Shown here: positions 22,809 through 62,077 of the stretch, piece after piece | How the letters are laid out: every line of letters starts with the position of its first letter | Numbering within the stretch: position 1 is the stretch's first letter | DNA from: Candidatus Woesearchaeota archaeon | Lineage (GTDB): Archaea > Nanobdellota > Nanobdellia > Pacearchaeales > GW2011-AR1 | Direction: 5' to 3' | DNA: 64,000 nucleotides | Assembly: GCA_964509675.1 (NCBI GenBank) | Contig: CAZDXC010000002.1 | Coordinates: 71,425 to 135,424, forward strand | The notes under the pieces: generated by a model | What the model was told of the DNA's origin: nothing | The model's input: the letters and a program-made list of their open reading frames with translations, nothing else | The model's database searches: none | Made by a program: the position numbers and the translations under genes

Positions 22809-23794
22809 AAATAGATTATCTTTATGCTCTTGAGAACATAATTCCAAATAAAAAAAGGAGAAGGATAATTCTTGCAGTTACGAATTTATGCAATTCTAAA
22901 TGCAAAACATGTTCTATGTGGAAAAATAAAAAAAGAACAGAATTAAGCTTGGAAGAACTGGAAAAATTTGCGAACACAAACCTCTTCAAAGAAGCAAGAT
23001 TTCTTTCTATAACAGGAGGAGAACCTTTCCTCAGAAAAGACATAGATAAAATTGTAAATTTGTTAAGAAGCAAAAATCCAAAATTGCATATCACGATTCT
23101 AACAAATGCCCTCCTTCCAGAAATCATAGAAGAAAAAGTACAGAAAATGCCTAAAGATGTTTTAATAACTTTATCTTTTAATGGAAAAGAACAAGTTCAT
23201 GATGAAACAAGAGGAGTGAAAGGAAATTTCAAAAAACTTCTTCAGACAATAGAAATCCTAAAAAGATTGAATATGAATATGAGTTCTATTTTCACTGTCA
23301 CAAAAGAAAATTATGATCAGTTATTATGGGCTTGGGATTTTGCAAAACAAAACAATCTCAATATAATGTTTTCTCCTGAAATGGATTATGGAAGACTAGA
23401 ACATGAAACAAAAAACAGAACACTAACAGAAGAAGAAAGAAATGCTGTTCTCCAGCAACTGAAAAAAATTTACTTAGAAAGAAGGAGAGGATTTTTTGAC
23501 AAAACCTATCTTTTATTCTTCAAGAAATTCTATGAAAAAAAGACAATTTCAAATAACTGCTATGCAGGAACAAACTCTCTCTATATAGATTTCACAGGAG
23601 ATATCTATCCATGTGAGAATCTCGTAGGAAGAATTCAGTCATTCGGAAATATAAAAACAAGTTTCACAATGCCTCTGAATTATAAAAATAAAGTGAAGAA
23701 GATGAAATGCTACGAAGGATGTTATCTTCTTTGTGAGATGGTTAGGAATATGAGAAAGCATCCTATAAAATCAATGAGAGAGATGAGAAATTAA
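22805..23794 (+). CDS. Radical SAM / SPASM-twitch domain enzyme
   Basis: LAVTNLCNSKCKTCSMW cluster. C-terminal NNCYAGTNSLYIDFTGDIYPCENL. Overlaps the upstream radical SAM gene by 4 nt. Confidence 0.8.
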   Translation: MKIDYLYALENIIPNKKRRRIILAVTNLCNSKCKTCSMWKNKKRTELSLEELEKFANTNLFKEARFLSITGGEPFLRKDIDKIVNLLRSKNPKLHITILTNALLPEIIEEKVQKMPKDVLITLSFNGKEQVHDETRGVKGNFKKLLQTIEILKRLNMNMSSIFTVTKENYDQLLWAWDFAKQNNLNIMFSPEMDYGRLEHETKNRTLTEEERNAVLQQLKKIYLERRRGFFDKTYLLFFKKFYEKKTISNNCYAGTNSLYIDFTGDIYPCENLVGRIQSFGNIKTSFTMPLNYKNKVKKMKCYEGCYLLCEMVRNMRKHPIKSMREMRN

Positions 23795-25695
23795 TCTTTT
23801 TTATGTTTTTTCCATGCATAAATATATGCCTCAAGCATTTTATCTGCAAAAGATTTCCAGCTTAAATTATCCCTTACAAATAATGTAGCTTTTTTTGCCT
23901 GTTCTTTGTATTTTTCTGTGTTATTATAAATTTCAAGAATTGCTTTATCATAATCTCTAGTTACTATTCCAAGATTATTTTTTTTAATCAAGGGTGCTGT
24001 TTCTATCCCTAAAGAAACAATTATTGGAATACCTGCACACAGGGCTTCTATAGGAGCCAAAACTCCTCCCTGCCTTTTTATCGGAAATAATCCGACATTC
24101 GCAGCCTTGTATAAATCTCTCAGCTCCTCTCTTGTCTTAAGATATTCTGCAAATAAGACATTTTTTTGCAAATTTTTCTCTTTTACATATTCTTCCAATT
24201 TCCTCCTGTATTCTGCATCTTCTCTTCCTGTCATGATAAGAAGAACCTTCGGAATCTTTTCTCTCACTTTTTCTATTGCCTTTATGCTGTCAAATTGATT
24301 TTTAACATCGCATAATATTCCAGATTGTATTACAACAAATTTATCTTCCAGGTTGAATTTTTTTACTGCATTGGAAGCTTTTCCTTTTGAGAAAAAATCA
24401 TAATCAATTCCAAAGTCCACAAGTTTAGCATCCTTTCCATATCTTTTCTTCGCTCTTGCTTGATTCAGGCTTTCAGCAACAGTAATAATATCTATGCTAT
24501 TTCTTACAATAAATCTATCTATCGAGTTTCTTATTTTACTTAGAGTTTTTAAAAAAATTCCTGCATTTGGCTTGCTGAATAAATTTGGAGGGAGATTCAT
24601 AAACCACACCGCTGGTTTTTTCCTTGGAAATAAAGTCCAAGTTACAGGAAAGTCATGAAAATTGACAATATCATAATTATGTTCAATTTCCTTCATCTTT
24701 TTCCTGAAAACTTTTATTGCATTTAAAACATCAGACATGCTCTTGTATCCGGGGGGTTGTAAATCGATATTGTTTTTTGTAGTTATTATTGTAGTATTGA
24801 GCAATTTAGCTTCGACTTCTTTTGAACTGGATAATGCTAATATATCATTCTTTATCCCCCTTTTTGTTAATTCATTCGCGAGTTCAACAATTAAAAGTTC
24901 TCCTCCTCCATAATATTTCATCTGATTGTGAACTATCAGAACTTTCTGATTATTCTCTTTTATCATTTGTTTTGCCATGTTTAAGTCTTCAAAGTCATTT
25001 ATATTTACATAGCCGTCCGCAATTTTGTAAATCTTTACATTTTTTCCATCATCAATAGCACATTGTATCATATCAACCATCTCTTTCTGATTTCTATACA
25101 TATTAATTGGAGTTTTCTCTATGTAATCTAATATTTCATTTTTGAAAATGCAATGTCCTGTTCCCTTAATATTGTTGATTGGAAAGCGAGGCTTTTCAAT
25201 CAGCCGGAAAATTCTTCCTTTTTCATTCAGCATTATAGAATATGTTTTTTTTATGCTTGATTTGTCTTTTTCATACACAACTCCACAGATCGCAAACAAT
25301 TCCTTCCTTTTGAATTCATTCAACATTCCTCTTATATCTGAATTAATCATTACTTCATCTCCAAGCATTAAGATGAAATCGCTTTTTCCTATAGCCTCTT
25401 TCGCATTATTAATTGCATTTACTATTCCTTCTCCCTTTTTTTCAATTACATAAGTAATTTTTATTTCCTTGTACCTTTTGCCTATCTTTTTGGTGATATC
25501 TTTTGGTTTGTAGCAAAGAACTAAGATTATTTCTGTAACTCCTGCCTCAACTGCTCTATCTAAATTGTATTCGAGAACAGTTTTGTCATACAATTCAAGA
25601 ATTGTCTTATTTTTGTTTGAAGTGATTTCCTTTAGTCTTGTTCCTTTTCCTCCAGAAATTATAACAGCCTTCATTACTTCTCTTTCACTTTCCAT
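23791..25695 (-). CDS. Bifunctional sugar-phosphate nucleotidyltransferase (LicC/RmlA-short-like N-domain) fused to GT4 glycosyltransferase
   Basis: N-terminal MKAVIISGGKGTRL (G-G-x-G-T-R-L NTP-transferase loop). C-terminal GT-B domain with GGVLAPIEALCAGIPIIVS. Confidence 0.7.
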   Translation of the reverse strand: MESEREVMKAVIISGGKGTRLKEITSNKNKTILELYDKTVLEYNLDRAVEAGVTEIILVLCYKPKDITKKIGKRYKEIKITYVIEKKGEGIVNAINNAKEAIGKSDFILMLGDEVMINSDIRGMLNEFKRKELFAICGVVYEKDKSSIKKTYSIMLNEKGRIFRLIEKPRFPINNIKGTGHCIFKNEILDYIEKTPINMYRNQKEMVDMIQCAIDDGKNVKIYKIADGYVNINDFEDLNMAKQMIKENNQKVLIVHNQMKYYGGGELLIVELANELTKRGIKNDILALSSSKEVEAKLLNTTIITTKNNIDLQPPGYKSMSDVLNAIKVFRKKMKEIEHNYDIVNFHDFPVTWTLFPRKKPAVWFMNLPPNLFSKPNAGIFLKTLSKIRNSIDRFIVRNSIDIITVAESLNQARAKKRYGKDAKLVDFGIDYDFFSKGKASNAVKKFNLEDKFVVIQSGILCDVKNQFDSIKAIEKVREKIPKVLLIMTGREDAEYRRKLEEYVKEKNLQKNVLFAEYLKTREELRDLYKAANVGLFPIKRQGGVLAPIEALCAGIPIIVSLGIETAPLIKKNNLGIVTRDYDKAILEIYNNTEKYKEQAKKATLFVRDNLSWKSFADKMLEAYIYAWKKHKKD

Positions 25696-25791: not shown

Positions 25792-27330
25792 ATGAAGATA
25801 ACCTTAATATCTACTTCAACCTTTCCTTCAGATCAGGGTATAAGAACAATTTCCAGTGTTTTAAAAAAAGAAGGACATGATGTAAAAATAGTTTTTATGA
25901 CTCTTAGTGAAGATTATTCTCAAAATTATAATCTTTCGGAATTAATTCAATTGTTACAAATTTGTAAAGACAGTAAATTAATAGGAGTAAATTCTTTTGC
26001 CTCAACTTCTACAAGAGCATCGAGAATAATTTCTTTTCTTAAGAAAAATCTTTATATACCTATAGTTTATGGAGGAGTTCATGCAACTATTTCTCCTGAA
26101 GATTGCATAAAGTTTTCGGATATTGTTTGTATTGGAGAAGGAGAAGGAGCAATAATAGATATAACAAAAGCAATAGAAAAAGGAAAAAATTTTGAGAAAA
26201 TAAAAAATCTTTGGATAAAAAAAAGAGGAGGAATTGTAAAGAATCCTGTAAGAAATCTCATAGATGATTTAGATTCTCTTCCGATGCCAGATTATGATAT
26301 AGAAACCCATTATATTCTTAACAAGGGAAAGATAAGAAAATTTATTGAAGAGGATTTGGCAGGACAGATTTTTTTCCTGACAGGAAGAGGATGTCCTTAT
26401 GGTTGTGATTATTGCAGCAATTCTTTTTTTAATAAACTTTATGAAAAAAAAAGAAAAAAAATTTTAAGGTGGCATTCCCCCGAATATATAATTAAGGGCA
26501 TACTTGAACTTAAAGAAAAATTTCCTAAAACTCTTTCTTATTTTGATATAAGAGACGACACTTTTTCATTACGGCCTTTAGGAGATATAAAGAAATTTTG
26601 TAAACTCTATAAAGAGAAAATTAAAATGAGATTTAAATGCCTTGCAGATCCACATACTGTTTCTGACGAAAAAATAGCCTTTTTAGTAGATGCAGGCTGT
26701 ACTGATATAATAATAGGAATACAAGGAAGTGAAAGAACTAATCTTGAAGTTTATCATAGAAATCAAAAAGATGAGGATGTTTTGAGGGCCGCACAGATAT
26801 TGAATAAATACAAAGCTAAACTTACTGTTATGTATGATGTAATTACTTGTAATCCATATGAGAATCCAGAAGATATAATAAATTTAATAAAACTTCTACA
26901 GCAAATTCCAAAACCTTATTACCTTTCTGTGAATAATTTAGTATTTTTTCCTGGTTCTCAATTATATAGAAAAGCTATCAATGACCCAAACTTAAATAAT
27001 TTCATAGAAGCATCCTCAAAATTAAACTATTGGGATAGAGCAAAACATATTAGGCTAAAGAAAAAAAATGCTTACCTTGTTTTAATCTTGAATTTAATGA
27101 GGGGGGCAGTTACAGAAAAAAGATTTGGGTTTATGCCCAACAAATTGCTAAAACGGCTTTTGGAACAGGGAAGAATAAATAGAAATCTTATAGATGATTT
27201 TAGGACAAAAATTTTACTAAGAGCTGTAGAAACCAGTGATTTAATACGTGAAAAAATTGCAAAACCTCTTTATCGCTCCTTCCCAGTTAATTTTAAGGGT
27301 TGGTATGATAAAATAAGATATAGGATGTAA
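25792..27330 (+). CDS. Cobalamin-binding (class B) radical SAM enzyme
   Basis: VYGGVHAT / IGEGEGAI B12-like region. GRGCPYGCDYCSNS cluster. Confidence 0.8.
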   Translation: MKITLISTSTFPSDQGIRTISSVLKKEGHDVKIVFMTLSEDYSQNYNLSELIQLLQICKDSKLIGVNSFASTSTRASRIISFLKKNLYIPIVYGGVHATISPEDCIKFSDIVCIGEGEGAIIDITKAIEKGKNFEKIKNLWIKKRGGIVKNPVRNLIDDLDSLPMPDYDIETHYILNKGKIRKFIEEDLAGQIFFLTGRGCPYGCDYCSNSFFNKLYEKKRKKILRWHSPEYIIKGILELKEKFPKTLSYFDIRDDTFSLRPLGDIKKFCKLYKEKIKMRFKCLADPHTVSDEKIAFLVDAGCTDIIIGIQGSERTNLEVYHRNQKDEDVLRAAQILNKYKAKLTVMYDVITCNPYENPEDIINLIKLLQQIPKPYYLSVNNLVFFPGSQLYRKAINDPNLNNFIEASSKLNYWDRAKHIRLKKKNAYLVLILNLMRGAVTEKRFGFMPNKLLKRLLEQGRINRNLIDDFRTKILLRAVETSDLIREKIAKPLYRSFPVNFKGWYDKIRYRM

Positions 27331-27333: not shown

Positions 27334-28047
27334 TTAATTTGCAGTTCTAAAGTCTTTCATTTTTTCTTTATAATTTATGGGGTCTTTTACGTTAGCCCAA
27401 TAAAATCCTTCTTGCCTTAAACGACAAGCAAGACAAGTTCCACAATGTTCTCCTTTTATACTATTGTAACAACTAAAAGTATACTTGAAATTCACACCAA
27501 GTTTTTCCCCTAAAAGAATAATGTCTTCTTTATCCTTCTTTATAAGCGGAGCCTTAATCTGAAAATTTTTATAACAACTTATTTTGCTTAACTTATTCAT
27601 CTGCTTAATAAATTTGGAGGTAGTATCAGGATAAGCTTCTTTTCCCTCGTTTTTAAAACCAACAAATAAATCATATTTTTTTTTGCTTTTGATATATAAA
27701 GATTCTGCAAGTGTAAGAGAGTAAATCAAAAAAACAGTATTCCTGCAGGGAATATACAGCCTCTTAGATTCTTTAGAACTATCTTTTAATTTTCTTCTTG
27801 TAATTTTTTGAGGTTTATTTTTTAAGGATTTTGTTATATCCCCCAACCATTTTAAATCCACTTCAATAAATTCTGCAGAAATATCTTTAGCACATTTTCT
27901 AGATGAATTTCTCTCTTGAATGACGCTTTTTTGGTTATAATTAAAAAAAACAAGTTTGATATCTTTGTATTTTAATATTTTTTTGACATAATAAGCAGTC
28001 GTAACACTATCCAATCCCCCAGAACACAATATTATTGCATTTTTCAT
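27334..28047 (-). CDS. queC: QueC-like PP-loop ATPase (7-cyano-7-deazaguanine synthase family)
   Basis: N-terminal MKNAIILCSGGLDS PP-loop (SGGxDS). C-terminal zinc-ribbon CYNSIKGEHCGTCLACRLR as in QueC. Confidence 0.6.
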   Translation of the reverse strand: MKNAIILCSGGLDSVTTAYYVKKILKYKDIKLVFFNYNQKSVIQERNSSRKCAKDISAEFIEVDLKWLGDITKSLKNKPQKITRRKLKDSSKESKRLYIPCRNTVFLIYSLTLAESLYIKSKKKYDLFVGFKNEGKEAYPDTTSKFIKQMNKLSKISCYKNFQIKAPLIKKDKEDIILLGEKLGVNFKYTFSCYNSIKGEHCGTCLACRLRQEGFYWANVKDPINYKEKMKDFRTAN

Positions 28048-28097
28048 AGATATTTCATTTAGATAATCTTTATAAATTTGTCTTATGAAGATATCTT

Positions 28098-28292
28098 ATG
28101 AAAAAATCTGCAAGGGAGTTAAAAAAGGGAGATAAGATATTAATAGCAAATCGAGAATATTTTGTAGAAGAATTAGAAATATCAGATATAGGAAAACACG
28201 GAATGAGAAAAGTAAGGATTGTTGCAATTTCCCCTCAACAGGAAAAAATAATCCTCATACGTCCTGAAGATTATCCCTTTGACTTCCTTTAA
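28098..28292 (+). CDS. aIF5A N-terminal-domain-like small protein (hypusine-loop GKHG motif). No C-terminal OB domain.
   Basis: KKGDKILIANREYFVEELEISDIGKHGMRKVRIVAIS aligns with the aIF5A N-domain LKVGQYVMIDG...DISVSKPGKHG.AK.R.V.I. The ORF ends where the GT2 gene starts. Confidence 0.45.
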   Translation: MKKSARELKKGDKILIANREYFVEELEISDIGKHGMRKVRIVAISPQQEKIILIRPEDYPFDFL

Positions 28293-29199
28293 AATGATAG
28301 ATGTAATCATAACTTCCTATAATGAACCAAAGTCCACTCTAAGAGCAGTTAATGCTTTTTTAAAACAGAACACAAAAGAAAATTTTAGGATAGTTATCTG
28401 TGATCCATTTAAAAAAGTAAGGAATTTTATAAAAAAAGAAATAAAAGACAAAAGAGTTAGATTTTTCCTTGACCCTGGAGAGGGAAAAAGCTATGCCCTT
28501 AATTTAATTTTTGAAAAATTGAAATCAGATAATAAAGAAGACATATTTATACTTACTGATGGCGATGTTTATGTTTCAGATAACGCTATTGGTGAAATTT
28601 CTAATGCCTTTAAAGATAAAGAGATTGGTTGTGTGACAGGAAGACCAATGTCTATAGATGAAAAAAATACAAAATTTGGATATTGGTCTCATTTGTTATT
28701 TTCAGGAATTCATAAAATAAGAAAAAAATTATCAGATGAGAAAAAATTTTTGGAATGCTCAGGATACTTATTTGCAATACGTAAGGGAGTAATAAATGAC
28801 TTTCTCATAGATGCATCAGAAGATTCTGTAATCCCTTATCTATTCTGGCAAAAAGAGTATAAAATAAAATATCTTCCAGAAGTAAAAGTATATGTAAAAA
28901 ACCCAGATAATATAAAGGACTGGGAAAATCAAAAAATAAGAAATGTAAAAGGACATGAAAACTTGAATAAGATATTCCCCAAAATGTCAAGGACAAAAAC
29001 TTTTTGGAATGAGATTAGATATGGTTTTTTTCACACTTTATTTTTCCCCCAAAACTTCAAGGAATTTATATGGACTATGAGTCTTTTAAAAGCGAGGTAT
29101 AAGATTTATAATAAAGCATTCAAAGACCTAAATAAAGAAAAAATGTATTTTGATGGTTGGAGAGAAACAGAAATAAATTCAACTAAAACTCTTGATTAA
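28279..29199 (+). CDS. GT2 family glycosyltransferase
   Basis: MIDVIITSYNE... and LTDGDVYVSDNAI (DxD) motifs. The start may be the MIDV at 28294. Confidence 0.75.
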   Translation: MTSFKMIDVIITSYNEPKSTLRAVNAFLKQNTKENFRIVICDPFKKVRNFIKKEIKDKRVRFFLDPGEGKSYALNLIFEKLKSDNKEDIFILTDGDVYVSDNAIGEISNAFKDKEIGCVTGRPMSIDEKNTKFGYWSHLLFSGIHKIRKKLSDEKKFLECSGYLFAIRKGVINDFLIDASEDSVIPYLFWQKEYKIKYLPEVKVYVKNPDNIKDWENQKIRNVKGHENLNKIFPKMSRTKTFWNEIRYGFFHTLFFPQNFKEFIWTMSLLKARYKIYNKAFKDLNKEKMYFDGWRETEINSTKTLD

Positions 29200-29602
29200 C
29201 TTTAAATTTCCTAAGTTTTTCTCTTAATTCCTTTAAAGAATTCACTATTTTTGTAGAATGTATTACTATCGCACTTAGGTTATCTAAGGCGTCTTCTATA
29301 GGTTCATCTTCTTTAATCCCTATCACAGGAATTCCTTTCGCATAAGCATAACCTAATTCCCAAGCAGTTCCGGCACCAATATGTAATCCATTTAAATCAG
29401 CGATAACCAAAGAAATATCTTTAAAACCATTTATTATATCTCCATTAAATGCTTTTTCTACATCCCCTATCTCTTTGATTAATCCAATATCTCGATGTGG
29501 AAGAAAGGTTTCAAAATCAAGTTCTTCTGCTATTTTTGCTATTTTTTCCAAGAATTTTCTTTCATTTTCACTACATAATTTGCCTGCAATGTAAACTTTC
29601 AT
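29183..29602 (-). CDS. Nucleoside 2-deoxyribosyltransferase-superfamily (NDT/Rcl-like) small protein
   Basis: MKVYIAGKL N-terminus and GTAWELGYAYAKGIPVIG match the NDT/Rcl flavodoxin-like fold signatures. Confidence 0.55.
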   Translation of the reverse strand: MKVYIAGKLCSENERKFLEKIAKIAEELDFETFLPHRDIGLIKEIGDVEKAFNGDIINGFKDISLVIADLNGLHIGAGTAWELGYAYAKGIPVIGIKEDEPIEDALDNLSAIVIHSTKIVNSLKELREKLRKFKVNQEF

Positions 29603-29662: not shown

Positions 29663-31057
29663 ATGATAAAGAGGATATTACTAATAAAGCTTGGAGCAAA
29701 AGGAGATGTAATCAGAACTCTTCCTTTGTTAATAGCAATAAAAGAGAGGTATCCTGATTCTGAAATAACATGGATTACAAAACCTTTATGTAAGGAGATT
29801 TTAGAAACAAGTCCTTATATAAATAGAATTCTAACAATTCCAGTCAATTTAAAAAGATTTTCTGAAGATTTTGATATTTTATTAAACTTTGATGTGGAAG
29901 AAGATGCAACAAAATTAGCAGAAGAAATAAAAGCAAGAAAGAAATATGGGTTTTTTTCACATGGAGAGTATCCCACATCATTTAACCTTTCTGCAGAATA
30001 TTATCTTAACACTCTTTTTGATGATGAATTAAAAAAAACAAACACAAAAACTTACCAACAAATGATGTTTGAAGTAGCAGAACTTCCCTATAAAAAACAG
30101 CATCATCCCCTTTATCTAAACGAAGAAGATATGAAATACGCAGAAGATTTTGTAAATAAACATAATATTAATCCAAAAAAATTAATTGGGATTCATGTAG
30201 GTTCCTCTCCAAGATGGCCCTCTAAAACATGGCATTTGGATATTGTAAAAGAATTTATAAAAAGAGCAAAGGAAAAAGGATATGAAATTCTTATTTTTAG
30301 GGGACCAGATGAGTCCGAGAAACATGAAATACTTATCAGAGATTTAGAAAATCAGGGGGTTGGGGTTTTTACAAATAATCCATTAAATAGAGACAGAGAA
30401 TTTTTATCTCTGATAAATCTATGTGAGAAAATCATATGTGGAGATACCTTTGCATTGCATGTTGCTTTATCTCTTAAAAAACCGACAGTTGGATTATTTT
30501 TCTGTACTTCTCCTAATGAAATTGAAGATTATGGATTATTAAAAAAAATACTCTCTCCAAGATTATATGATTTTTTCCCTGAAAAACAAAATCTATACGA
30601 TGAAGATTTGACAAAAAGTATCTCTGTTGAACAAGTCCTAAATTCTATAGAAAATTTTGAGAAAACAAAAAGAGTAATCAACACCATCATAAAGGACAAT
30701 GATAAAGTTTTAGTTATCAAAAGAAAAAGCGGAATTCACTCAGGAAAATGGGCTTTTCCAGGCGGCATTATGAAAGATAGTGAGACTATCGGAGAAACAT
30801 TAAAAAGAGAAATAAAAGAGGAAACTAACCTTGATGTTTATAATATAATCAAAAAAATTTCAGACTATTCTTATTGGGGAAAGGAAGGAGAAAAAATCTT
30901 GGGGGAATGTTATCTTGTAAATGTAAAAAATGGAGAAGTAAAAATAAATAAAGAAGCAGAAGAATTTAGATGGGTTTCTTTAGAAGAATTTGGGAAATTA
31001 AATTATATAGAGGGACTGGATAAAGAAGTTTTTTTGGCCTTTTATAATAAACAATAA
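29663..31057 (+). CDS. GT9 ADP-heptose-type heptosyltransferase fused to a C-terminal NUDIX hydrolase domain
   Basis: N-terminal ILLIKLGAKGDVIRTLPLL (RfaC/RfaF-like GT9 start). C-terminal Nudix box GGIMKDSETIGETLKREIKEETNL (GX5EX7REUXEEXGU). Confidence 0.7.
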   Translation: MIKRILLIKLGAKGDVIRTLPLLIAIKERYPDSEITWITKPLCKEILETSPYINRILTIPVNLKRFSEDFDILLNFDVEEDATKLAEEIKARKKYGFFSHGEYPTSFNLSAEYYLNTLFDDELKKTNTKTYQQMMFEVAELPYKKQHHPLYLNEEDMKYAEDFVNKHNINPKKLIGIHVGSSPRWPSKTWHLDIVKEFIKRAKEKGYEILIFRGPDESEKHEILIRDLENQGVGVFTNNPLNRDREFLSLINLCEKIICGDTFALHVALSLKKPTVGLFFCTSPNEIEDYGLLKKILSPRLYDFFPEKQNLYDEDLTKSISVEQVLNSIENFEKTKRVINTIIKDNDKVLVIKRKSGIHSGKWAFPGGIMKDSETIGETLKREIKEETNLDVYNIIKKISDYSYWGKEGEKILGECYLVNVKNGEVKINKEAEEFRWVSLEEFGKLNYIEGLDKEVFLAFYNKQ

Positions 31058-31117: not shown

Positions 31118-32524
31118 ATGGAAAGATTATTGGAATTTTTAAAGGATTTTTCTAAAAAAAAGATACTTGTTATTGGGGATGTTATGTTAGATAAGACAAT
31201 TGTGGGGGATGTCTCAAGAATTTCACCTGAAGCCCCTATTCAAATAGTTAATGTAAGAGAAGAATTTTATGAACCAGGGGGGGCAGCAAATACTGCTGCA
31301 AATATTGCTTCTCTTGAAGGAAATGTTTCTTTGTTTGGATTTGTTGGAGAAGATTATAATGCAGAGGTTCTGTTAAAAATATTAAATAAAAAGAAAATCA
31401 GTTGTTTTTTTGATAAAAATCGCATAACCACCCTTAAGGAAAGAATAAGAGGAAGAAACCAACAGCTCTTGAGACTTGATTATGAAGAATCTTCCTTGAA
31501 AAATTTCAGTTTTGAAAATATGAGAAAACTTGAAAAAGAAATGGGACCTACGGATATAATTTTAATATCTGATTATGCAAAAGGAACTGTGACAGGAAAT
31601 TTAATGAATTTTTTGAAATCTTTTGATAAAAAAATTGTAATTGACCCCAAACCACAAAATATGTCTTTATATCGAGATGTTTTTTTAATTACTCCAAACG
31701 AAAAAGAAGCGTTGGAAATCACTTCCCAAAAGAATGTCTATATGGCTGGAAGAATTCTTAAGAAAAAATTTAATTGTAATGTTGTGGTTACAAGGGGGGA
31801 AAATGGAATGACTCTATTTTCAAATAATGAAATTGATATACCCACAACTGTAAGAGAAGTATATGATGTTGCTGGAGCAGGAGATACTGCTATTGCCGCA
31901 CTTTCTTTATCTTTGGCTTCAGGAGCTTCTCTTGAAGAAGCAGTTATTATAGCAAATCATGCAGCAGGTATATCAGTAAGAAAAGTTGGAACTTATCAGG
32001 TTAAATTGAGAGAATTAGAAAATGTGATTTTAGGAGAAGAAAGAAAATTAAAAACTATTGATGAATTATTTGAAATCATAAGAGAATTGAAGAAAAAACA
32101 AAAGAAAATAGTCTGGACAAATGGTTGTTTTGATCTTTTTCATGCAGGACACAAATATTCTCTTGAGCAAGCCAGAAAAAAAGGAGATATTTTAATTGTT
32201 GGTTTAGATTCAGATGAGTCTGTTCGGAAATTGAAGGGTTCTGAAAGACCAATATATAATCAAGAACAAAGAGTAGAGATTTTATCTGGAATGGAGTTTG
32301 TTAATTATATTACAATATTTCCTCCAGAGAAAGCATCAGAATATATTCAACTATTAAAACCAGATGTTTATGTTAAGTCTGGAAATTATACAATAGACTC
32401 AATAAACCAAAAAGAAAGAAAAATTATTGAAGAATATGGAGGAGAGATTTATCTTCCAAGAGGAATTTCAGAACTTTCCACGACGAATATAATAAATAAA
32501 ATAAAAAAACAAAATGGAATTTGA
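31118..32524 (+). CDS. hldE: Bifunctional D-beta-D-heptose 7-phosphate kinase / D-beta-D-heptose 1-phosphate adenylyltransferase
   Basis: N-terminal PfkB-type kinase (GGAANTA...DVAGAGDTAIAAL). C-terminal cytidylyltransferase-like domain (VWTNGCFDLFHAGH). Confidence 0.8.
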   Translation: MERLLEFLKDFSKKKILVIGDVMLDKTIVGDVSRISPEAPIQIVNVREEFYEPGGAANTAANIASLEGNVSLFGFVGEDYNAEVLLKILNKKKISCFFDKNRITTLKERIRGRNQQLLRLDYEESSLKNFSFENMRKLEKEMGPTDIILISDYAKGTVTGNLMNFLKSFDKKIVIDPKPQNMSLYRDVFLITPNEKEALEITSQKNVYMAGRILKKKFNCNVVVTRGENGMTLFSNNEIDIPTTVREVYDVAGAGDTAIAALSLSLASGASLEEAVIIANHAAGISVRKVGTYQVKLRELENVILGEERKLKTIDELFEIIRELKKKQKKIVWTNGCFDLFHAGHKYSLEQARKKGDILIVGLDSDESVRKLKGSERPIYNQEQRVEILSGMEFVNYITIFPPEKASEYIQLLKPDVYVKSGNYTIDSINQKERKIIEEYGGEIYLPRGISELSTTNIINKIKKQNGI

Positions 32525-33530
32525 TAGAAATAAATTAAATATTCTTCCTTTGAATTTTAGGGTAAACAAATCTTCTATAGAACAAATTGTAATAAGTCCT
32601 AATTCAAGATCTTATCCTTCACAAAATTCTAAATTAATTCATAAAATTGCAGAAACTATTCTCTTTGCAAGAAAAAACAACAAGCAGGTTATTTTGGCAT
32701 ATGGTGCCCATTTAATTAAAAATGGATTGGGTTTGGTTTTGAGAAGAATGATTGAAGAAGGTTTTGTTACCCATTTAGCTACTAATGGAGCCGGTTCTAT
32801 TCATGATTGGGAATTTGCATTCCAAGGAGGAACTGAAGAAGATGTTGAGAAATATATTAAAGAAGGGCAATTTGGAATCTGGGAAGAAACAGGACAATAT
32901 ATAAATTTAGCATTAATCTCGGGAGCTGAAAAAGGAATTGGCTATGGAGAATCTGTTTGTGAAATGATTCATAATGAAGAATTAGTAATTCCTGAAAATA
33001 AAAAAATACAAAAAATGAATATAAAGCCAGGAAAAATTGTCATAAAACATCCTTATAAAAAATATTCTGTCCAAGATTCAGCATGGGATAAGATCCCTTT
33101 TACAGTGCATCCTTCTTTTGGTTATGATATAATTTATACTCACCCTTTTAGTGATGGAGCATCAATAGGAAAATGTGCTGAAGTAGATTTTTTAAAATTT
33201 GTTAGCAGCATAAATAAATTGGAAGGCGGCATTTATCTTTCAATAGGTTCTTCAATAATGTCTCCTATGGTATTTGAAAAATCTTTATCTATGGCAAGAA
33301 ATTTGGCAAAACAAGAAAATAGAAAAATTGAAGATTTTACTATTGTTATAAATGATATTCAGAAAGGGGATTGGGATTGGAGTAAAAAGACTGAACCAGA
33401 AAAAAGCAATCCCGCATATTATTTACGTTTTTGCAAAACTTTCCATAGAATGGGTGCAAAAGAAATGTATTATGTAAGGGAAGACAATAGAAATTTTCTT
33501 TTATCTCTTTATCAAAATTTGAAAAAATAA
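32514..33530 (+). CDS. Deoxyhypusine-synthase-like (DHS-fold) protein
   Basis: ILAYGAHLIKNGLG...VTHLATNGAGSIHD aligns with the DHS core LGYTSNLISSGIRE...VTTAGGVEED. THPFSDGASIGK aligns with ALTDGSLGD. IVINDIQ aligns with VYINTAQ. Overlaps the hldE stop by 11 nt and ends 2 nt before gmhB. Confidence 0.45.
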   Translation: MEFDRNKLNILPLNFRVNKSSIEQIVISPNSRSYPSQNSKLIHKIAETILFARKNNKQVILAYGAHLIKNGLGLVLRRMIEEGFVTHLATNGAGSIHDWEFAFQGGTEEDVEKYIKEGQFGIWEETGQYINLALISGAEKGIGYGESVCEMIHNEELVIPENKKIQKMNIKPGKIVIKHPYKKYSVQDSAWDKIPFTVHPSFGYDIIYTHPFSDGASIGKCAEVDFLKFVSSINKLEGGIYLSIGSSIMSPMVFEKSLSMARNLAKQENRKIEDFTIVINDIQKGDWDWSKKTEPEKSNPAYYLRFCKTFHRMGAKEMYYVREDNRNFLLSLYQNLKK

Positions 33531-33531: not shown

Positions 33532-34062
33532 ATGAAAAATAAAGCTATTTTCTTAGATAGAGATGGAACAATAAATGTTAATAAAGGATACATATATAGA
33601 GTAGGGGATTTAGAGATAATCCCCAAAGTTATAGAAGGATTGAAAATTCTTAGAGAGAATGGATATAAATTAATAATTGTGACTAATCAGTCAAAGATAG
33701 CAAGAGGATATTGTACAAAAGAAGATTACTTTAAATTTAGAGGGGAAATACATAAAAAATTAAGAGAACAGGGCATTATAATAACAGCAGAATATTTTTG
33801 TCCACACCACCCCCTTGATAATTGTAATTGCAGAAAACCAAAAACAGGCATGTTAGAGCGGGCTACAAAGGATTTTAATTTAGATATAAATGAATGCTGG
33901 ATGATAGGAGATAAAGATTCAGATATACTTGCAGGAAAAAATTCAGGATGTAGAACAATTCATGTTCTGACAGGAGAAGAAAAAAAACCCATAGATTATG
34001 CAGATTTTATAGCAAAAGATTTAATTAAAGCAGCAGATTATATCTTAAAACAAAAACAATAA
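33532..34062 (+). CDS. gmhB: D-glycero-D-manno-heptose 1,7-bisphosphate phosphatase (HAD family)
   Basis: AIFLDRDGTIN (HAD motif I). Zinc-binding CPHH...CNCRKPKTGM characteristic of GmhB. Confidence 0.8.
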   Translation: MKNKAIFLDRDGTINVNKGYIYRVGDLEIIPKVIEGLKILRENGYKLIIVTNQSKIARGYCTKEDYFKFRGEIHKKLREQGIIITAEYFCPHHPLDNCNCRKPKTGMLERATKDFNLDINECWMIGDKDSDILAGKNSGCRTIHVLTGEEKKPIDYADFIAKDLIKAADYILKQKQ

Positions 34063-34086: not shown

Positions 34087-35682
34087 GTGGAAGAAGTAAA
34101 AGGAGAATTAAAAGAACCTGAAAAAGAGATAGAAAAGAGAAAAAATTATATAAAGAAAAAACTTTTCTCCTGGATAAAAGATAATTATGATAAAATTTTC
34201 CTTGTTATTCTAATAGTTGCTTTTATTATAAGATTCCTTATTTTTCTTAAAACAATGAACCAGCCTCTTTGGTGGGATGAAGCAGATTATCTTTCAACTG
34301 CAAAAAAATGGGGGCTGGGATTACATATTAAAGATATTTGGTATTATAGAAGGGGATTTTTATGGCCATTAATAGGAGCCGCCTTTTTTGGAATAGGTAT
34401 GGGGGAAGTAGGAATGAGATTTCTTGTAGTTCTTTTATCAACCGGAACTGTGGCTCTTTCTTATTTTATAATTAGAAAAATGTTTGACAAAAAAACTGCC
34501 CTTTTAGTATCTATAGGAATTTTATTTTCTTGGGTTTCTTTATTTTTTACAGGAAGAGTACTGACAGATATTCCTGCAACTTTCTTTCTTTTATTTGCAT
34601 TGTTATTCTTCTGGAAAGGTTATGTCCTTAAAGAAGGAAATAAATTTTTATATCTTTTTGGAGTATTTTTTGCCCTCTCATTATTGACAAGATTTCAATT
34701 TGCAATGTTTGCATTACCTTTTCTTGTTTTTATATTTACAAGAGAAAAATTCAAATTTGTGAAGAATAAACACCTTTGGATAACACTTGGTTTGGCCTTT
34801 GCTGTTCTTCTTCCTTTTTTTGTTTTGTATTGGATGCATTATGGAAATATTGTTACTGATATCTTATCTCATTATTTTGGAGTCTCGGGAGTGTCTTCCA
34901 CTGAACCTGCTCAGAGAACCTTTTCTACAATATTCAATTATTTCAAAGATTTACCTTATATTCTTACTAAATCTATTTTTGTTCTATTTATTATAGGATT
35001 ATTTGTCTTCTTTCAGGATATGTTTCTAGGGATAGATAAAATTTTCAAAAATGAAGAAGTTCAAAAGAAATTTTTTATTTTTCTATGGATTATTGTTCCT
35101 TTCTTAGTTTTAGGATATATAACAGAATATGTAGAACACAGATATATTCTCTCAACTTTGCCTTTTTTATTTTTAGTTTCAATATCTCCATTAATAAAAT
35201 TTGGAGGCTTATTGAGTAGACACTATAAGAAAATTAATAAAAAAACAGCATATATCTTTTCAGCTATTTTATTTTTGTTTTTAATGATAGTAAGTTTTGG
35301 CAGTAGTATCCCTTCAAATTATTCATGGGGGAATAATTTAATAGCAAATAAATTAACTTCTTATTCAGAAGTACAACAGGCTGGATTATGGATGAAAGAG
35401 AATTCTAATACTACAGACATAATAATCTCTCAGTCAAGACCTCAAATAACTTATTATTCTGAAAGAACAACATATGATTTAACTCAAATGGGGCCAGAAT
35501 CTGCATTTCAAGAAAATTTATCGAGAATAAAGCCAAAATATCTTATGTTATCCAAATTTGAACCCCATCAGCAGTGGATGTACTCCTATCCTCAAGAGCA
35601 TAATAGCACTGTAATTCCTGTGAAGGTATATTATCAAAACCAACAGCCTGCTGCAATAATCTATCAATTCAAATATTCTTAA
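34087..35682 (+). CDS. GT-C fold glycosyltransferase (PMT/ArnT-like, GT39/GT83-type)
   Basis: 531 aa polytopic membrane protein with WWDEADY motif in the first extracytoplasmic loop, as in ArnT/PMT-family lipid-linked-sugar transferases. Confidence 0.65.
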   Translation: MEEVKGELKEPEKEIEKRKNYIKKKLFSWIKDNYDKIFLVILIVAFIIRFLIFLKTMNQPLWWDEADYLSTAKKWGLGLHIKDIWYYRRGFLWPLIGAAFFGIGMGEVGMRFLVVLLSTGTVALSYFIIRKMFDKKTALLVSIGILFSWVSLFFTGRVLTDIPATFFLLFALLFFWKGYVLKEGNKFLYLFGVFFALSLLTRFQFAMFALPFLVFIFTREKFKFVKNKHLWITLGLAFAVLLPFFVLYWMHYGNIVTDILSHYFGVSGVSSTEPAQRTFSTIFNYFKDLPYILTKSIFVLFIIGLFVFFQDMFLGIDKIFKNEEVQKKFFIFLWIIVPFLVLGYITEYVEHRYILSTLPFLFLVSISPLIKFGGLLSRHYKKINKKTAYIFSAILFLFLMIVSFGSSIPSNYSWGNNLIANKLTSYSEVQQAGLWMKENSNTTDIIISQSRPQITYYSERTTYDLTQMGPESAFQENLSRIKPKYLMLSKFEPHQQWMYSYPQEHNSTVIPVKVYYQNQQPAAIIYQFKYS

Positions 35683-36193: not shown

Positions 36194-37197
36194 TATAAGT
36201 ATCCTTTTTCTTTATAATAGTTCACTGTTCTTTTTATTCCTTCTTCCAAGGAAAAAATTGGTCTATAACTTAATTCTTTTTCTGCTTTTGAAATATCACT
36301 ATACCAAAATTTTTCAGTCATCCATTTAATTGTATCATGTTTAAATGGAGGATGAAAGTTTAGTATTTTTCCTAAGAATTCTAGGAGATATCCTCCAGAA
36401 ATAAAAACAAATTTAGGAAATTTTATAAATAAAATTTTTTTATTTTCTGCTTTTTCCATAGCTTTAATTATTTGATTAATGCTGTAATGCTCTCCATTTG
36501 AAATATTGTATTTTCCCCCCACTTTTCCTTTCTTAATTGCTAATAAGCAGGCTTCAATTAAATTTTTAACATATAAAAATTCCATTCCTTTTATATTGCT
36601 TCTTATTGGAAAAAATCTTTTATTTACAGTCAAGAATAATTTCAGCATTTCAAAATCTCTCTCTCCAAAAACCATGGAAGGACGTAGTATAACAATCGGC
36701 ATTTTATATTTATTAAAATATTCCATTGCAATTTTTTCTTGAGCTAATTTGCTCCAACCATATATATCTACTGGCCTGCATTCTGTTTCTTCATTTACAG
36801 GGATTTCATCTCTTGTTGGTCCTACAGCAGAAATACTACTCATTATAATTATCTTTTTTATTTTTTTATTCTTACATGATTCTAAAAGATTTTTTGTTCC
36901 TTCCTCATTTATTTTAAAATATAAATCATTAGGAATAGTCATAGGTCTTGCAATTGCAGCCAAGTGAAAAATCACATCAATATTTTTAACAGCATCTTTC
37001 AATGAGCGTTTATCTAATAAATCTCCTTCAATGATTTCTATATTTAATCTTTTTAATAATTCTAACGAATCTCGCCTTTTTTCAGATCTTTTCTTTTCTT
37101 TTCTGACCAAAACCTTAATTTTATTTTTTTCTTTTGCAAGTCGTTCTACTAAATGACTTCCAATAAGCCCTGTTGCTCCTGTAACAAAAACTTTCAT
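36193..37197 (-). CDS. NAD-dependent epimerase/dehydratase (SDR)
   Basis: MKVFVTGATGLIGSHLVERL Rossmann motif. YGWSK (YxxxK). Start at MKV, giving a 4-nt overlap with the upstream radical SAM gene. Confidence 0.8.
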   Translation of the reverse strand: MKVFVTGATGLIGSHLVERLAKEKNKIKVLVRKEKKRSEKRRDSLELLKRLNIEIIEGDLLDKRSLKDAVKNIDVIFHLAAIARPMTIPNDLYFKINEEGTKNLLESCKNKKIKKIIIMSSISAVGPTRDEIPVNEETECRPVDIYGWSKLAQEKIAMEYFNKYKMPIVILRPSMVFGERDFEMLKLFLTVNKRFFPIRSNIKGMEFLYVKNLIEACLLAIKKGKVGGKYNISNGEHYSINQIIKAMEKAENKKILFIKFPKFVFISGGYLLEFLGKILNFHPPFKHDTIKWMTEKFWYSDISKAEKELSYRPIFSLEEGIKRTVNYYKEKGYL

Positions 37198-38648
37198 GGT
37201 AAAATAGGAGAAAAAATCCAAGCGATATAAGCAGCTATTTTTCTCATAGTTTTATTTTTCACCAACAATTTTGCAAAATTTTCTGTTAAAAAAAATGCAA
37301 GAATTTTTTCTATTTTTGGATAATCTTTTCTTTTTTTTGAATTTTTGCAGCTCCAGACATGTCCCAGTTGAGTCAAAAAAATCATCTCTCTATCAGAATA
37401 ATTTTTGGTATATAAAGGAGCATTTCCTGTTTTTGGATTGATATAATAAAGCCATAAATAATCATTAATCAGGCCTTCCTTTTTAGCAATATCATAAACA
37501 GTAGTTCCTGGGTAAATTGTCAAGGCATTAATTCCTATCCAGTCTGGTTTTGTTTCTCTTATCAATTCAAAAGTTTTCCATGTATCTTCTGCTTCCTCTT
37601 CAAGCGAGCCTACAATTAAAAAGAATTTTAATTCAATTTCTGCCTTTTTAGTCATTTCAGAAGCTTTTTTTATCTTTTCAATTGTAATATTTTTTCCAAT
37701 AGCTCTTAAAACTTTGTCTGAGCCAGATTCAGCGCCATATTCAATTAAATCACACCCTGCTTTTTTCAATATCTTTAGCATTTCTTCATCAACTGTGTCT
37801 ACTCTTGCCTGTATTCTAAATTTAATGGGAAGTTTATTTTTTATTACTAATTCACAAAATTTTATTACCTTCTCTTTTTTCAATGTGAATAAATCATCAG
37901 CAAATCTTATATAATCTATTCCATATTCTTGGTTCAATTCTTTTACTTGCTTAAATAATTTTTCAGCAGAGGTGCTTCTTACCTTTCTTCCCCAAGCAAG
38001 CGTAGTTTCACAAAATTTGCAACCCATAGGACATCCCCTTGAAGTTGTTACAAGTGTTGTTTGTTTTACATTTTTGACATCTGGAGGTAAGGGATATTCT
38101 TTCATAGGGAATAAATCATAAGCAGGAAGAGGAAGATTTTCTATATTTTCCATAAAACATCTTGGAGGATTAATTTTTATTTTTCCTTTTTCCCTAAAAG
38201 ATATTCCTAAAATCTTATTAATTTTTTTTTTATTTTTTATTGCCTTGATCAATTCATACAGAGTCTCTTCCCCTTCCCCCCTAACAACAATGTCAACAAA
38301 ATTGTAATTTTTTAACAGAAGACTATCTAAAAAAGTAGCATGCAATCCTCCAATTATCGTAATAATATCTGAATTTCTTTTTTTTATTTCTTCTAATGTT
38401 TTTAAGGCAGAATATCTATTTTCAGTTAAGCAGCTTACTCCAACTATTTTTGCTCTGGTTCTGATAGATTCACTTGCAGTTTTTTCAAAATTCCATCCTT
38501 TTATTGGAGCATCTATCACTTGAGATGATATTTCTCTCTCTCTTAAATAAGCTGCTAAACAAGCAATTCCCAATGGAACTCCTGACATGGGAAACTTACT
38601 GGTTGTTTTTTTATCTAAGGGGGGGTTAATTAAACAAATATCATTCAT
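37194..38648 (-). CDS. Cobalamin-binding (class B) radical SAM enzyme
   Basis: IIGGLHAT / VRGEGEET B12-like region. TSRGCPMGCKFCET cluster. Confidence 0.8.
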   Translation of the reverse strand: MNDICLINPPLDKKTTSKFPMSGVPLGIACLAAYLREREISSQVIDAPIKGWNFEKTASESIRTRAKIVGVSCLTENRYSALKTLEEIKKRNSDIITIIGGLHATFLDSLLLKNYNFVDIVVRGEGEETLYELIKAIKNKKKINKILGISFREKGKIKINPPRCFMENIENLPLPAYDLFPMKEYPLPPDVKNVKQTTLVTTSRGCPMGCKFCETTLAWGRKVRSTSAEKLFKQVKELNQEYGIDYIRFADDLFTLKKEKVIKFCELVIKNKLPIKFRIQARVDTVDEEMLKILKKAGCDLIEYGAESGSDKVLRAIGKNITIEKIKKASEMTKKAEIELKFFLIVGSLEEEAEDTWKTFELIRETKPDWIGINALTIYPGTTVYDIAKKEGLINDYLWLYYINPKTGNAPLYTKNYSDREMIFLTQLGHVWSCKNSKKRKDYPKIEKILAFFLTENFAKLLVKNKTMRKIAAYIAWIFSPILP

Positions 38649-46314: not shown

Positions 46315-46315
46315 A

Positions 46316-53917: not shown

Positions 53918-54254
53918 TTAAATCATTTATTTTATTTTTATTGTCTCCCAGGACTCCCTTTCCTGTTCCAAAATTTTTTTTGCTTTCAATTCCTCCTCTT
54001 GGAGGATGTAACCTGAAATATTTTTTTGATTTTGAGAATTTCTCTCTCGCTTCAACTAATTTTTTAAATGTTTCCTGATTTATCTCTCCGAATGCAACAA
54101 AATTTTTTACTTTTTCTATCATTCCTGACTCTTCTGATTTTGGATTTTCCAAAATAACGCATGAATATTTTTTCTTTACCCCGAGTCTCTTTAGAGTTTC
54201 TTCTATCTCTTTCCTTATCTTAACTTTTCCTTTTATTCTGATAACTGCTATCAT
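53901..54254 (-). CDS. rpl30: 50S ribosomal protein uL30
   Basis: MIAVIRIKGKV start. Position. Confidence 0.85.
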   Translation of the reverse strand: MIAVIRIKGKVKIRKEIEETLKRLGVKKKYSCVILENPKSEESGMIEKVKNFVAFGEINQETFKKLVEAREKFSKSKKYFRLHPPRGGIESKKNFGTGKGVLGDNKNKINDLIERML

Positions 54255-54256
54255 CT

Positions 54257-56856: not shown

Positions 56857-56858
56857 TT

Positions 56859-57239: not shown

Positions 57240-57240
57240 T

Positions 57241-57471: not shown

Positions 57472-57476
57472 TTTGC

Positions 57477-57974: not shown

Positions 57975-57975
57975 C

Positions 57976-59036: not shown

Positions 59037-59037
59037 T

Positions 59038-59786: not shown

Positions 59787-59801
59787 TTTCTGTTTGTTGT
59801 G

Positions 59802-60095: not shown

Positions 60096-60099
60096 TGTT

Positions 60100-60315: not shown

Positions 60316-60316
60316 T

Positions 60317-61672: not shown

Positions 61673-61677
61673 TTTGA

Positions 61678-62076: not shown

Positions 62077-62077
62077 T

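Follow-up and report, generated by a model that had tools for sequence, protein, structure and literature searches.

A GT9 glycosyltransferase and a Nudix hydrolase are encoded as one protein in a DPANN archaeon with Pacearchaeota/Woesearchaeota affinity. The fusion is genuine and recurs in related archaea, and it is a new domain architecture assembled from known families. The gene lies in a 64-kb stretch of archaeal DNA (the window), next to genes related to heptose synthesis. Our overall reading, which is plausible but tentative, is that the GT9 half would transfer heptose while the Nudix half would serve as an accessory acting on the NDP-heptose pool.

Architecture of the fusion protein

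The features on which the analysis rests are the following.

28279..29199, + strand: GT2 glycosyltransferase of the conserved core (PF00535, PF13641)
29663..31057, + strand: GT9-NUDIX fusion gene (464 aa), a single ORF with both Pfam domains above cut-off
29663..30667, + strand: GT9 (GT-B) glycosyltransferase half, aa 1-335 (Foldseek, WaaC residue mapping)
30668..31054, + strand: minimal Nudix hydrolase half, aa 336-464 (PF00293, fold matches)
30764..30832, + strand: Nudix box GX5EX7REUXEEXGU, GIMKDSETIGETLKREIKEETNL, with N for the penultimate G
31118..32524, + strand: hldE-type bifunctional heptose-7-P kinase/heptose-1-P nucleotidyltransferase (PfkB + CTP_transf_like)
32514..33530, + strand: GSU2086-family protein, 338 aa, heptose-linked, with an 11-nt overlap at the hldE stop
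33532..34062, + strand: gmhB-type HAD heptose-1,7-bisphosphate phosphatase (HAD-IIIA and histidinol-phosphatase-type models pass)
34087..35682, + strand: GT-C membrane glycosyltransferase (PMT_2/ArnT-like), conserved partner of GT9 (PF13231, 49.1 bits)

The initial annotation had proposed a single-ORF fusion, and the frame bears this out: it opens with ATG and runs for 464 residues with zero internal stops. Both Pfam profiles exceed their cut-offs on the same chain, Glyco_transf_9 (PF01075) at residues 68-298 (65.6 bits, cut-off 22) and NUDIX (PF00293) at residues 338-450 (67 bits, cut-off 21.1). The identical protein is present in an NCBI assembly, on a contig of 169,666 bp, and again in a Logan assembly made independently (L001), which excludes an assembly artefact of the window. 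A hidden stop or frameshift that splits the domains is ruled out by the one frame and by this identity between two assemblies. The same architecture was found in other genomes, in 41 homologues that share 48-71% identity with the window protein. A literature search covering heptosyltransferase-Nudix fusions, ADP-heptose with Nudix, and DPANN heptosyltransferases returned nothing relevant, and it found no paper describing a GT9-NUDIX fusion, in agreement with the initial statement that no characterised one was known.

The AlphaFold2 (AF2) model of the protein has a pLDDT of 91.5 and a pTM of 0.75. About 6 residues separate the two halves, and the model contains no flexible linker; the final GT9 helix (322-333) runs straight into a Nudix strand (335-345).

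The glycosyltransferase half

The GT9 half is an inverting GT-B glycosyltransferase in which the catalytic Asp and the residues for donor binding are retained as in WaaC. Its best Foldseek matches are 3TOV (1.8e-21, TMt 0.74), RfaF (1PSW, 5e-16) and WaaC (1e-14; structures 2GT1, 2H1H and 6DFE). WaaC residues D13, K192, E222, D261 and H266 align by hmmalign with D15, K188, E217, D261 and H266, which show either no variation or at least 90% conservation across the 41 homologues. We take D13 of WaaC to be the catalytic Asp and the other four to be ADP-heptose-binding residues. The RfaC/RfaF-like character first assigned to this half thus holds by profile, fold and active site. The equivalog models of the LPS heptosyltransferases are all missed (TIGR02193, 72.1 against 185.3; TIGR02195, 51.5 against 134.6; TIGR02201, 51.5 against 170.2), and the protein is a GT9 member without being orthologous to the LPS-core enzymes. 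Since the archaeal host lacks LPS and Kdo2-lipid A, the acceptor must differ from that of the LPS heptosyltransferases. An operon with HldE and GmhB, together with GT9 fusions to GmhA, GmhB and HldC in relatives, makes heptosyltransferase the most likely predicted activity.

Candidate heptose genes in the operon

The hldE and gmhB homologues reported downstream of the fusion are both present in the same operon, but they are not adjacent, as the GSU2086-family gene intervenes. From the fusion through hldE and the GSU2086-family gene to gmhB, successive genes overlap by at most 11 nt or lie at most 60 nt apart. The hldE product matches the HldE model NF008454 over its full length with 426.5 bits (equivalog cut-off 521), and the gmhB product scores 170.9 against 178 for PRK08942 and 146.6 against 149.6 for TIGR00213. 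The GSU2086 family is widespread among bacteria and archaea.

The ADP-heptose module had been described as complete, which the window does not support. A tblastn search of the 64 kb with the SIS domains of two GT9-GmhA fusion proteins (P0050 and P0061) found no SIS-type GmhA (best E = 0.3). No HldD equivalog was found in the window either, the best SDR candidates reaching 116.2 and 58.1 bits against a TIGR02197 cut-off of 274.6. Scans of the window for tRNA genes and Rfam families were empty. The view that such a pathway is unusual for archaea has also been overtaken, because GT9 is near-universal in the DPANN clade of the host and because Tang et al. 2024 (Science) describe, in summary, functional archaeal NDP-heptose enzymes (PMC11461863).

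The Nudix half

The C-terminal half contains the sole Nudix box of the 64-kb window. As the initial annotation had recognized, the box is canonical; its catalytic residues are intact, and G368, E374, R382, E383, E386 and E387 are invariant across 41 sequences. From this intact and conserved box we infer that the Nudix half is probably an active pyrophosphohydrolase.

Judged by sequence and fold, the Nudix half is closest to the Ap4A-hydrolase/NudI/MutT type and not to the ADP-ribose pyrophosphatases. The nearest folds are Ap4A hydrolase 3I7U, RppH, MutT, NudI and NudG, among many Nudix structures that Foldseek matches at TMt 0.7-0.84. Identity to the Aquifex Ap4A hydrolase 3I7U is 28-30%, at a TM of 0.74-0.76. 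In profile-to-PDB comparison the top matches are NudI (7e-14), MutT (1e-13) and CTP pyrophosphohydrolase. The ADP-ribose pyrophosphatase domain of NadM-Nudix (2QJT), matched at 3.3e-7, and 3I7U resemble the window domain as much as MutT does. Every NCBIfam Nudix equivalog falls far under its cut-off, including MutT (TIGR00586, 41.6 against 97.9), NudI (NF012016, 39.5 against 95) and NudE (NF008736, 20.1 against 169). Dunn et al. 1999 are said to have found that a proline about 16 residues past the Nudix box marks ADP-ribose and ADP-sugar pyrophosphatases. The window protein has no proline there, and residues 405-407 are W-G-K. The AF2 model and Foldseek revealed no extra N-terminal dimerization domain, and the half is a bare core of 129 residues.

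Distribution and origin of the fusion

Across 83 loci of the clade, the core order is GT2, GT9, a variable slot and PMT_2. The GT2 gene lies upstream and the PMT_2 GT-C gene downstream of GT9 in nearly all of them, and PMT_2 is retained even in a distant relative (L088) with the order GT9-GmhA-HldE-PMT_2. NUDIX occupies 15 of the 83 loci, fused to GT9 in 11 and as a separate gene overlapping GT9 by a few bases in 4, and in all 15 it stands at the 3' end of GT9. It is missing from the other 68, and is thus optional rather than integral to the heptosyltransferase. All close NUDIX homologues (at least 45% identity) are fused to GT9 or lie a few nucleotides from its 3' end, in a slot that also houses heptose genes; the next-nearest Nudix proteins (37-44% identity) occur in unrelated gene contexts. 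One locus (L085) has a second, separate Nudix gene.

Fusions of GT9 to other proteins also occur. GT9 is joined to GmhB (P0032), to GmhA (P0050, P0061), to HldC (P0334) and to HldC plus NUDIX (P0104), as well as to GT2 (P0355, P0400) and GT-C (P0445). GT9 and HldE share an operon in the window and in L005, L015, L026, L027 and L088. About three quarters of the GT9 loci of the clade have no heptose-synthesis gene within 10 kb, among them 8 NUDIX-positive loci. Heptose-synthesis genes lie beside GT9 in 7 of 15 loci with NUDIX and 17 of 68 without it, and the idea that NUDIX tracks heptose genes was set aside because the association is not significant (Fisher p = 0.12).

In relatives the NUDIX gene is absent, an overlapping gene or fused, which shows that the fusion arose by stop-loss merger of two translationally coupled genes. 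A single ancient fusion is not supported, given the split forms and the scattering of NUDIX-positive loci in small groups on a neighbour-joining tree of GT9, which is poorly resolved. Outside the clade, no GT9-NUDIX fusion was found among the best 150 representatives, a list on which weaker, more distant fusions would not rank.

Proposed function and alternatives

The GT9-NUDIX gene would encode a bifunctional cytoplasmic enzyme. Operon structure and the fusions found elsewhere suggest that the GT9 half would most likely take heptose from the NDP-heptose of the co-transcribed HldE/GmhB and place it on a lipid-linked glycan intermediate, which would then be handled by the adjacent GT-C (PMT_2) and/or AglB. 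The Nudix half would be an optional accessory of the NDP-heptose pathway. Its likeliest substrate, a best guess that we hold with reserve, would be the NDP-heptose donor itself, with ADP-heptose and water giving AMP and heptose-1-phosphate. Nudix enzymes generally split NDP-sugars into NMP and sugar-phosphate (PMC7729866). The domain could in this way act as a valve on the NDP-heptose pool or repair it, recovering nucleotide and sugar-phosphate from donor that is surplus or of the wrong kind, much as Nudix enzymes hydrolyse GDP-mannose or ADP-glucose beside polysaccharide pathways. A stricter version, in which a dedicated NDP-heptose pyrophosphatase is tethered to the donor-consuming transferase as an editing or overflow device at the point of use, is somewhat unlikely; its targets may be excess or non-cognate NDP-heptose, for example with the wrong nucleotide or the wrong C6 epimer. 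A role in NDP-heptose hydrolysis is favoured by the confinement of NUDIX homologues to the 3' end of GT9 and by the fusions of GT9 to heptose-synthesis enzymes (GmhA, GmhB, HldC), as well as by a resemblance to the ADP-ribose pyrophosphatase domain of NadM-Nudix no smaller than that to MutT. Weighing against it, no feature of sequence or fold places the domain among ADP-sugar pyrophosphatases, 68 of 83 loci dispense with it, its association with heptose genes is not significant, and an enzyme that destroys the donor it needs seems wasteful unless the hydrolysis is regulated or selective.

The Nudix half could instead be a house-cleaning or salvage enzyme, a pyrophosphohydrolase of NTPs or dNTPs like MutT, NudI and NudG, whose place after GT9 would be an accident of a compact genome. 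The fusion would in that case be a neutral outcome of gene overlap and have no role specific to heptose. The ranking of NudI, MutT and CTP pyrophosphohydrolase as best profile matches agrees with this, as do its dispensability across most of the clade and the salvage-type neighbours, an NDT-like gene and QueC, with Vut_1 and thymidylate kinase beside the NDT-like gene in relatives. We nevertheless consider it somewhat unlikely: the close homologues are found solely at the GT9 3' end and on the GT9 strand, GT9 itself stands between the Nudix domain and the NDT/QueC genes, HldC lies between GT9 and NUDIX in the single chain of P0104, the MutT and NudI cut-offs are well missed, and L085 keeps a second, separate Nudix gene. 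The NDT-like neighbour was set aside as a part of the mechanism, as relatives have it on the opposite strand, paired with Vut_1 or thymidylate kinase. It is improbable that the GT9 half uses another nucleotide sugar, with the Nudix domain tied to that donor. The CAZy family GT9 also includes a GlcNAc-transferase, the HepI/II/III equivalogs are under cut-off, and most GT9 loci of the clade have no heptose gene nearby; yet GT9 is fused directly to GmhA, GmhB and HldC, shares an operon with HldE in six loci including the window, and conserves the ADP-heptose-binding residues of WaaC.

Two further substrates were weighed. Inhibition by the NDP product is common among glycosyltransferases, and a Nudix domain coupled to GT9 without a linker could split released ADP into AMP and Pi, easing inhibition and pulling the transfer forward. 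Nucleoside diphosphates are, however, unusual Nudix substrates, most GT9 enzymes of the clade operate without a Nudix domain, and ADP is abundant in the cytoplasm, where a fused ADPase would presumably drain the adenylate pool before lowering ADP locally. ADP clearance is thus unlikely, and we give it a very slim chance. The least probable proposal has the domain cleave a polyprenyl diphosphate, either dolichyl-PP or a sugar linked to Dol-PP, on the side of the membrane where GT9 works. NudI, which the domain resembles, and plant NUDX1 use prenyl diphosphates as substrates, Foldseek matches the geraniol-NUDX1 complex 5GP0, and the gene stands among those for lipid-linked glycans (AglH-like, AglB, a Wzx-like flippase and GT-C). 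The domain resembles many other Nudix enzymes at least as closely as NudI and NUDX1, however, its 129 residues include no hydrophobic extension or membrane segment, and in P0104 the fusion of HldC with NUDIX suggests a soluble nucleotide as the substrate.

Should the stricter version, a dedicated NDP-heptose pyrophosphatase tethered to the transferase, prove right, no glycosyltransferase with such a donor-hydrolysing domain would have been described before, and the ADP-heptose class of innate-immune agonists would gain its first dedicated hydrolase. According to the summary of Tang et al. 2024, NDP-heptoses are made in all domains of life and are potent ALPK1 agonists, and their use in archaea is left open (PMC11461863). 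The attached domain is a candidate natural NDP-heptose hydrolase; if this is confirmed, it would be of use as a reagent and would reveal a new way of regulating glycosyltransferases. If it is a generic house-cleaning enzyme, the fusion is merely a curiosity of a compact genome. The linkage of GT9, GT2 and GT-C by synteny and fusions, in this locus and about 80 relatives, points to a heptose-containing surface glycoconjugate of DPANN archaea, and the co-operonic GSU2086 family is a candidate for an enzyme still missing from heptose metabolism.

Comparison with known systems

The heptose genes of the window resemble the enzymes of Tang et al. 2024, an archaeal HldE-type kinase/nucleotidyltransferase and a GmhB-type phosphatase that, by the summary of that study, function across kingdoms (PMC11461863). 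As summarized, its scope is NDP-heptose synthesis and immune recognition, and the summary says nothing of heptosyltransferase-Nudix proteins or of the GSU2086 family (PMC11461863).

With E. coli WaaC (HepI), WaaF/RfaF (HepII) and Veillonella 3TOV, the GT9 half shares the Pfam family, the GT-B fold, the GD motif of the catalytic Asp, the D-x-x-x-x-H donor-site motif and the equivalents of K192 and E222. Like the LPS heptosyltransferases of E. coli, it shares an operon with ADP-heptose synthesis genes. Identity to WaaC, RfaF and 3TOV is only 14-21%, however, and none of the solved GT9 enzymes matched by Foldseek has a C-terminal Nudix domain.

The Nudix half is a single domain of about 130 residues like Ap4A hydrolase 3I7U, NudI, MutT, NudG and RppH, its closest relatives in sequence and fold, but unlike these housekeeping enzymes its clade of close homologues is confined to the GT9 neighbourhood. 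NadM-Nudix (2QJT, 2QJO) offers a parallel in which a small, detectably similar Nudix domain is fused to an enzyme handling an adenylylated product. The partner there is a nucleotidyltransferase, whereas here it is a glycosyltransferase, and the ADP-ribose specificity of NadM-Nudix is not transferable to the window domain, which scores far under the PRK05379 cut-offs. P0104 recalls NadM-Nudix more directly, as its NUDIX domain follows HldC (PF01467), a member of the nucleotidyltransferase superfamily of NadM. In E. coli, Gmm/WcaH is a GDP-mannose mannosyl hydrolase and AspP/NudF an ADP-sugar pyrophosphatase. Such Nudix enzymes stand in or beside glycan-synthesis clusters, where they can trim the pool of activated sugar (PMC7729866), and the window domain is placed likewise. 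The two E. coli enzymes are free-standing and belong to other Nudix subfamilies, whereas the window domain is fused to the transferase; the box of GDP-mannose mannosyl hydrolase is atypical and its cleavage falls at the sugar carbon, whereas the window box is canonical.

The GT9-NUDIX gene and its operon

The fusion gene (29663..31057, plus strand) is one open reading frame of 464 codons with an ATG start and no internal stop, which excludes the hidden stop between the domains that the initial annotation had considered. Both Pfam profiles match the same chain: Glyco_transf_9 at aa 68-298 (65.6 bits, cut-off 22), so that a failed GT9 match is likewise excluded, and NUDIX at aa 338-450 (67 bits, cut-off 21.1). 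An identical protein is found in an NCBI assembly (169,666-bp contig) and again, flanked by the same genes, in a Logan assembly made independently. The fusion gene is the first of a tight same-strand run.

Genes following the fusion gene, all on the same strand
hldE: 60-nt gap after the fusion gene
GSU2086-family gene: overlaps hldE by 11 nt
gmhB: 1-nt gap after the GSU2086-family gene
GT-C/PMT_2 membrane transferase: 24-nt gap after gmhB

The placement of hldE and gmhB directly downstream is correct in that both belong to the run, but the GSU2086-family gene lies between them. In the 64-kb window the module does not amount to the complete ADP-heptose pathway first described: a SIS GmhA is not detectable there, and every SDR falls short of the HldD cut-off. 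The HldE C-terminus (32480-32524) ends in ...YLPRGISELSTTNII, with Arg six residues, not five, ahead of STT. It is not an exact match to the (F/L)xxGxSTT motif tied to nucleotide promiscuity (PMC11461863), and ADP-, CDP- and UDP-heptose all remain candidate products.

The window has a G+C content of ~29% and is rich in glycosyltransferase and B12-radical-SAM genes. It also encodes a 934-aa AglB/STT3 oligosaccharyltransferase and a SecY, the latter carrying a plug of the Sec61 type. AglB/STT3 adjoins an AglH/WecA-like polyprenyl-phosphate sugar-1-P transferase; the pair (45298-49120, minus strand) also lies near GT9 in the homologous locus L004. At 23791-25695 (minus strand), a sugar-1-phosphate nucleotidyltransferase (NTP_transferase) and a GT4 glycosyltransferase form one 634-aa protein, which is kept in L002 (627 aa). 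It is the second example in the window of a transferase joined with the enzyme that handles its nucleotide sugar. Radical SAM genes are unusually dense inside this glycosylation island.

Radical SAM genes in the window
B12-binding radical SAM: 10466-11938, 18905-20326, 25792-27330, 37194-38648, 41985-43493
rSAM/SPASM: 12996-14042, 21672-23794

The hopanoid-associated families HpnA, HpnJ, HpnL and HpnB match genes at 36-45 kb below threshold. From 54000 to 64000, GC skew is negative and AT skew strongly so (-0.24 to -0.38), over short minus-strand ORFs that follow one another upstream of SecY in window coordinates; spurious-looking plus-strand ORFs overlap them.

Properties of the two halves

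The AF2 model of the fusion protein is confident (pLDDT 91.5, pTM 0.75), and the best structural matches of the GT9 half are the GT9 structures 3TOV, RfaF and WaaC. Alignment of E. coli WaaC and WaaF to the family HMM places WaaC D13/K192/E222/D261/H266, the catalytic Asp and the ADP-heptose-binding residues according to the WaaC structural papers, at D15/K188/E217/D261/H266. Across 41 homologues, each of the five is either invariant or conserved at 90% or more. Judged by predicted fold and these residues, the GT9 half is a bona fide GT9 enzyme. Its acceptor must differ from that of LPS HepI/II/III, since the host lacks LPS and the protein does not come near the equivalog cut-offs that NCBIfam sets for these enzymes.

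The Nudix half is a bare 129-aa core joined to the last GT9 helix by ~6 residues. Its box, GIMKDSETIGETLKREIKEETNL (30764-30832), is the only Nudix box in the 64-kb window; initially called textbook, it is canonical overall but has N for the penultimate G. The family (41 homologues) keeps G368, E374, R382, E383, E386 and E387 invariant, and likewise H359, W363, Y404, G414 and E455. This invariance argues for an active enzyme under selection.

Distribution among relatives

Using phmmer, 83 non-redundant loci were tabulated. The named homologues and 80 species-representative loci carry the labels Pacearchaeota, Woesearchaeota or Nanoarchaeota; the exceptions are a few records with no more than 'archaeon' in the title, one Parvarchaeum and one 'bacterium'. 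Together with the window's gene content, these labels identify the host as a DPANN archaeon. The near-universal core is QueC(-), a 64-aa ORF, GT2, an NDT-like gene(-), GT9, a variable slot and PMT_2. The slot is empty or holds combinations of HldA, HldC, HldE, SIS-GmhA, GmhB, S6PP-type HAD and GSU2086. NUDIX is present in 15/83 loci, first in the slot every time. The search for the same architecture in other genomes was productive: 11 loci have the fusion, and in four NUDIX has its own ORF, with an overlap of a few nucleotides at the GT9 stop. The split form comprises stand-alone proteins of 127-139 aa with 45-54% identity; in L085, one such locus whose context was checked, the order is GT9, a 57-aa ORF, then NUDIX. 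The next most similar Nudix proteins, at 37-44% identity, have unrelated gene contexts. On a star-like, poorly resolved NJ tree of GT9 domains, the NUDIX-positive loci fall into several small groups. These comparative data show that two translationally coupled genes have merged recurrently by stop loss, and that NUDIX is an accessory found exclusively at the GT9 3' end. The fusion is confined to DPANN clusters among the best 150 of 1.84 billion representatives.

The block upstream of GT9 in nearly all loci (window 27334-29602) consists of QueC(-), the 64-aa ORF, GT2 and the nucleoside 2-deoxyribosyltransferase-like gene(-). In L085 and L088 the partner of the last is Vut_1 (a YhhQ-type preQ0 transporter) or thymidylate kinase. 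This pairing and the conserved QueC block suggest that a set of genes for nucleotide or 7-deazaguanine salvage is interspersed among the glycan genes.

The probable heptose link and a possible role of the Nudix half

Homologous proteins join GT9 to other partners.

Other GT9 fusions
GT9 + GmhB: P0032
GT9 + GmhA: P0050, P0061
GT9 + HldC: P0334
GT9 + HldC + NUDIX: P0104
GT9 + GT2: P0355, P0400
GT9 + methyltransferases: P0373, P0421
GT9 + GT-C: P0445 (Sumerlaeota bacterium, 1117 aa)

L088, whose protein is a 36% identity relative, has the order GT9-GmhA-HldE-PMT_2, two more GT9 genes (three within 17 kb), a Wzx-type flippase and an AglH-type initiating transferase. From these fusions and this gene set, the GT9 donor is likely an NDP-heptose, and the acceptor is likely a lipid-linked glycan handled later by a GT-C enzyme. 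A donor sugar other than heptose is improbable beside the fusions to GmhA, GmhB and HldC.

Gmm/WcaH and AspP are precedents for Nudix enzymes beside polysaccharide pathways. The Nudix half may cleave the nucleotide-diphosphate linkage of a metabolite of its own pathway, and NDP-heptose would then yield NMP and heptose-1-P. Conversion to NMP and sugar-phosphate is the ordinary reaction of Nudix enzymes with nucleotide sugars (PMC7729866). Hydrolysis of NDP-heptose, taken alone, is possible but doubtful; the overall explanation, a GT9 heptosyltransferase with a Nudix domain acting on the NDP-heptose of the same pathway, is our tentative preference at somewhat less than even confidence. Heptose-synthesis genes stand beside GT9 in 7/15 loci with NUDIX and in 17/68 without it, a difference that is not significant (p = 0.12). 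A generic house-cleaning or salvage Nudix is unlikely, though a serious contender. Clearance of ADP, as opposed to the nucleotide sugar, is quite improbable, and a prenyl or dolichyl diphosphate substrate is the least probable of these readings.

Comparison with known systems

No description of a heptosyltransferase-Nudix protein came up in full-text literature searches, in agreement with the initial annotation, and a structure search with the model found no PDB chain joining the two folds. Tang et al. (2024) found archaeal NDP-heptose enzymes functional, according to a commentary (PMC11461863) that leaves unsettled what archaea use heptoses for. The Nudix half reaches none of the NCBIfam equivalog cut-offs, and its substrate cannot be read from homology. 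The nearest relatives are small Nudix enzymes with varied specificity: the Ap4A hydrolase 3I7U (28-30% identity, TM 0.74-0.76), RppH, MutT, NudI and CTP pyrophosphohydrolase, near by both sequence and fold, with the Nudix domain of NadM-Nudix at a comparable level. ADP-ribose pyrophosphatases, in contrast, have an extra domain and a marker Pro, and the Nudix half has neither. The GT9-NUDIX domain architecture is real, recurs across loci and is so far undescribed, and it occurs in a lineage with unexplored heptose glycobiology. What the Nudix half cleaves is the chief point of interest, and the GSU2086 family is a further one that emerged as a by-product; the architecture itself is assembled from two well-known families.
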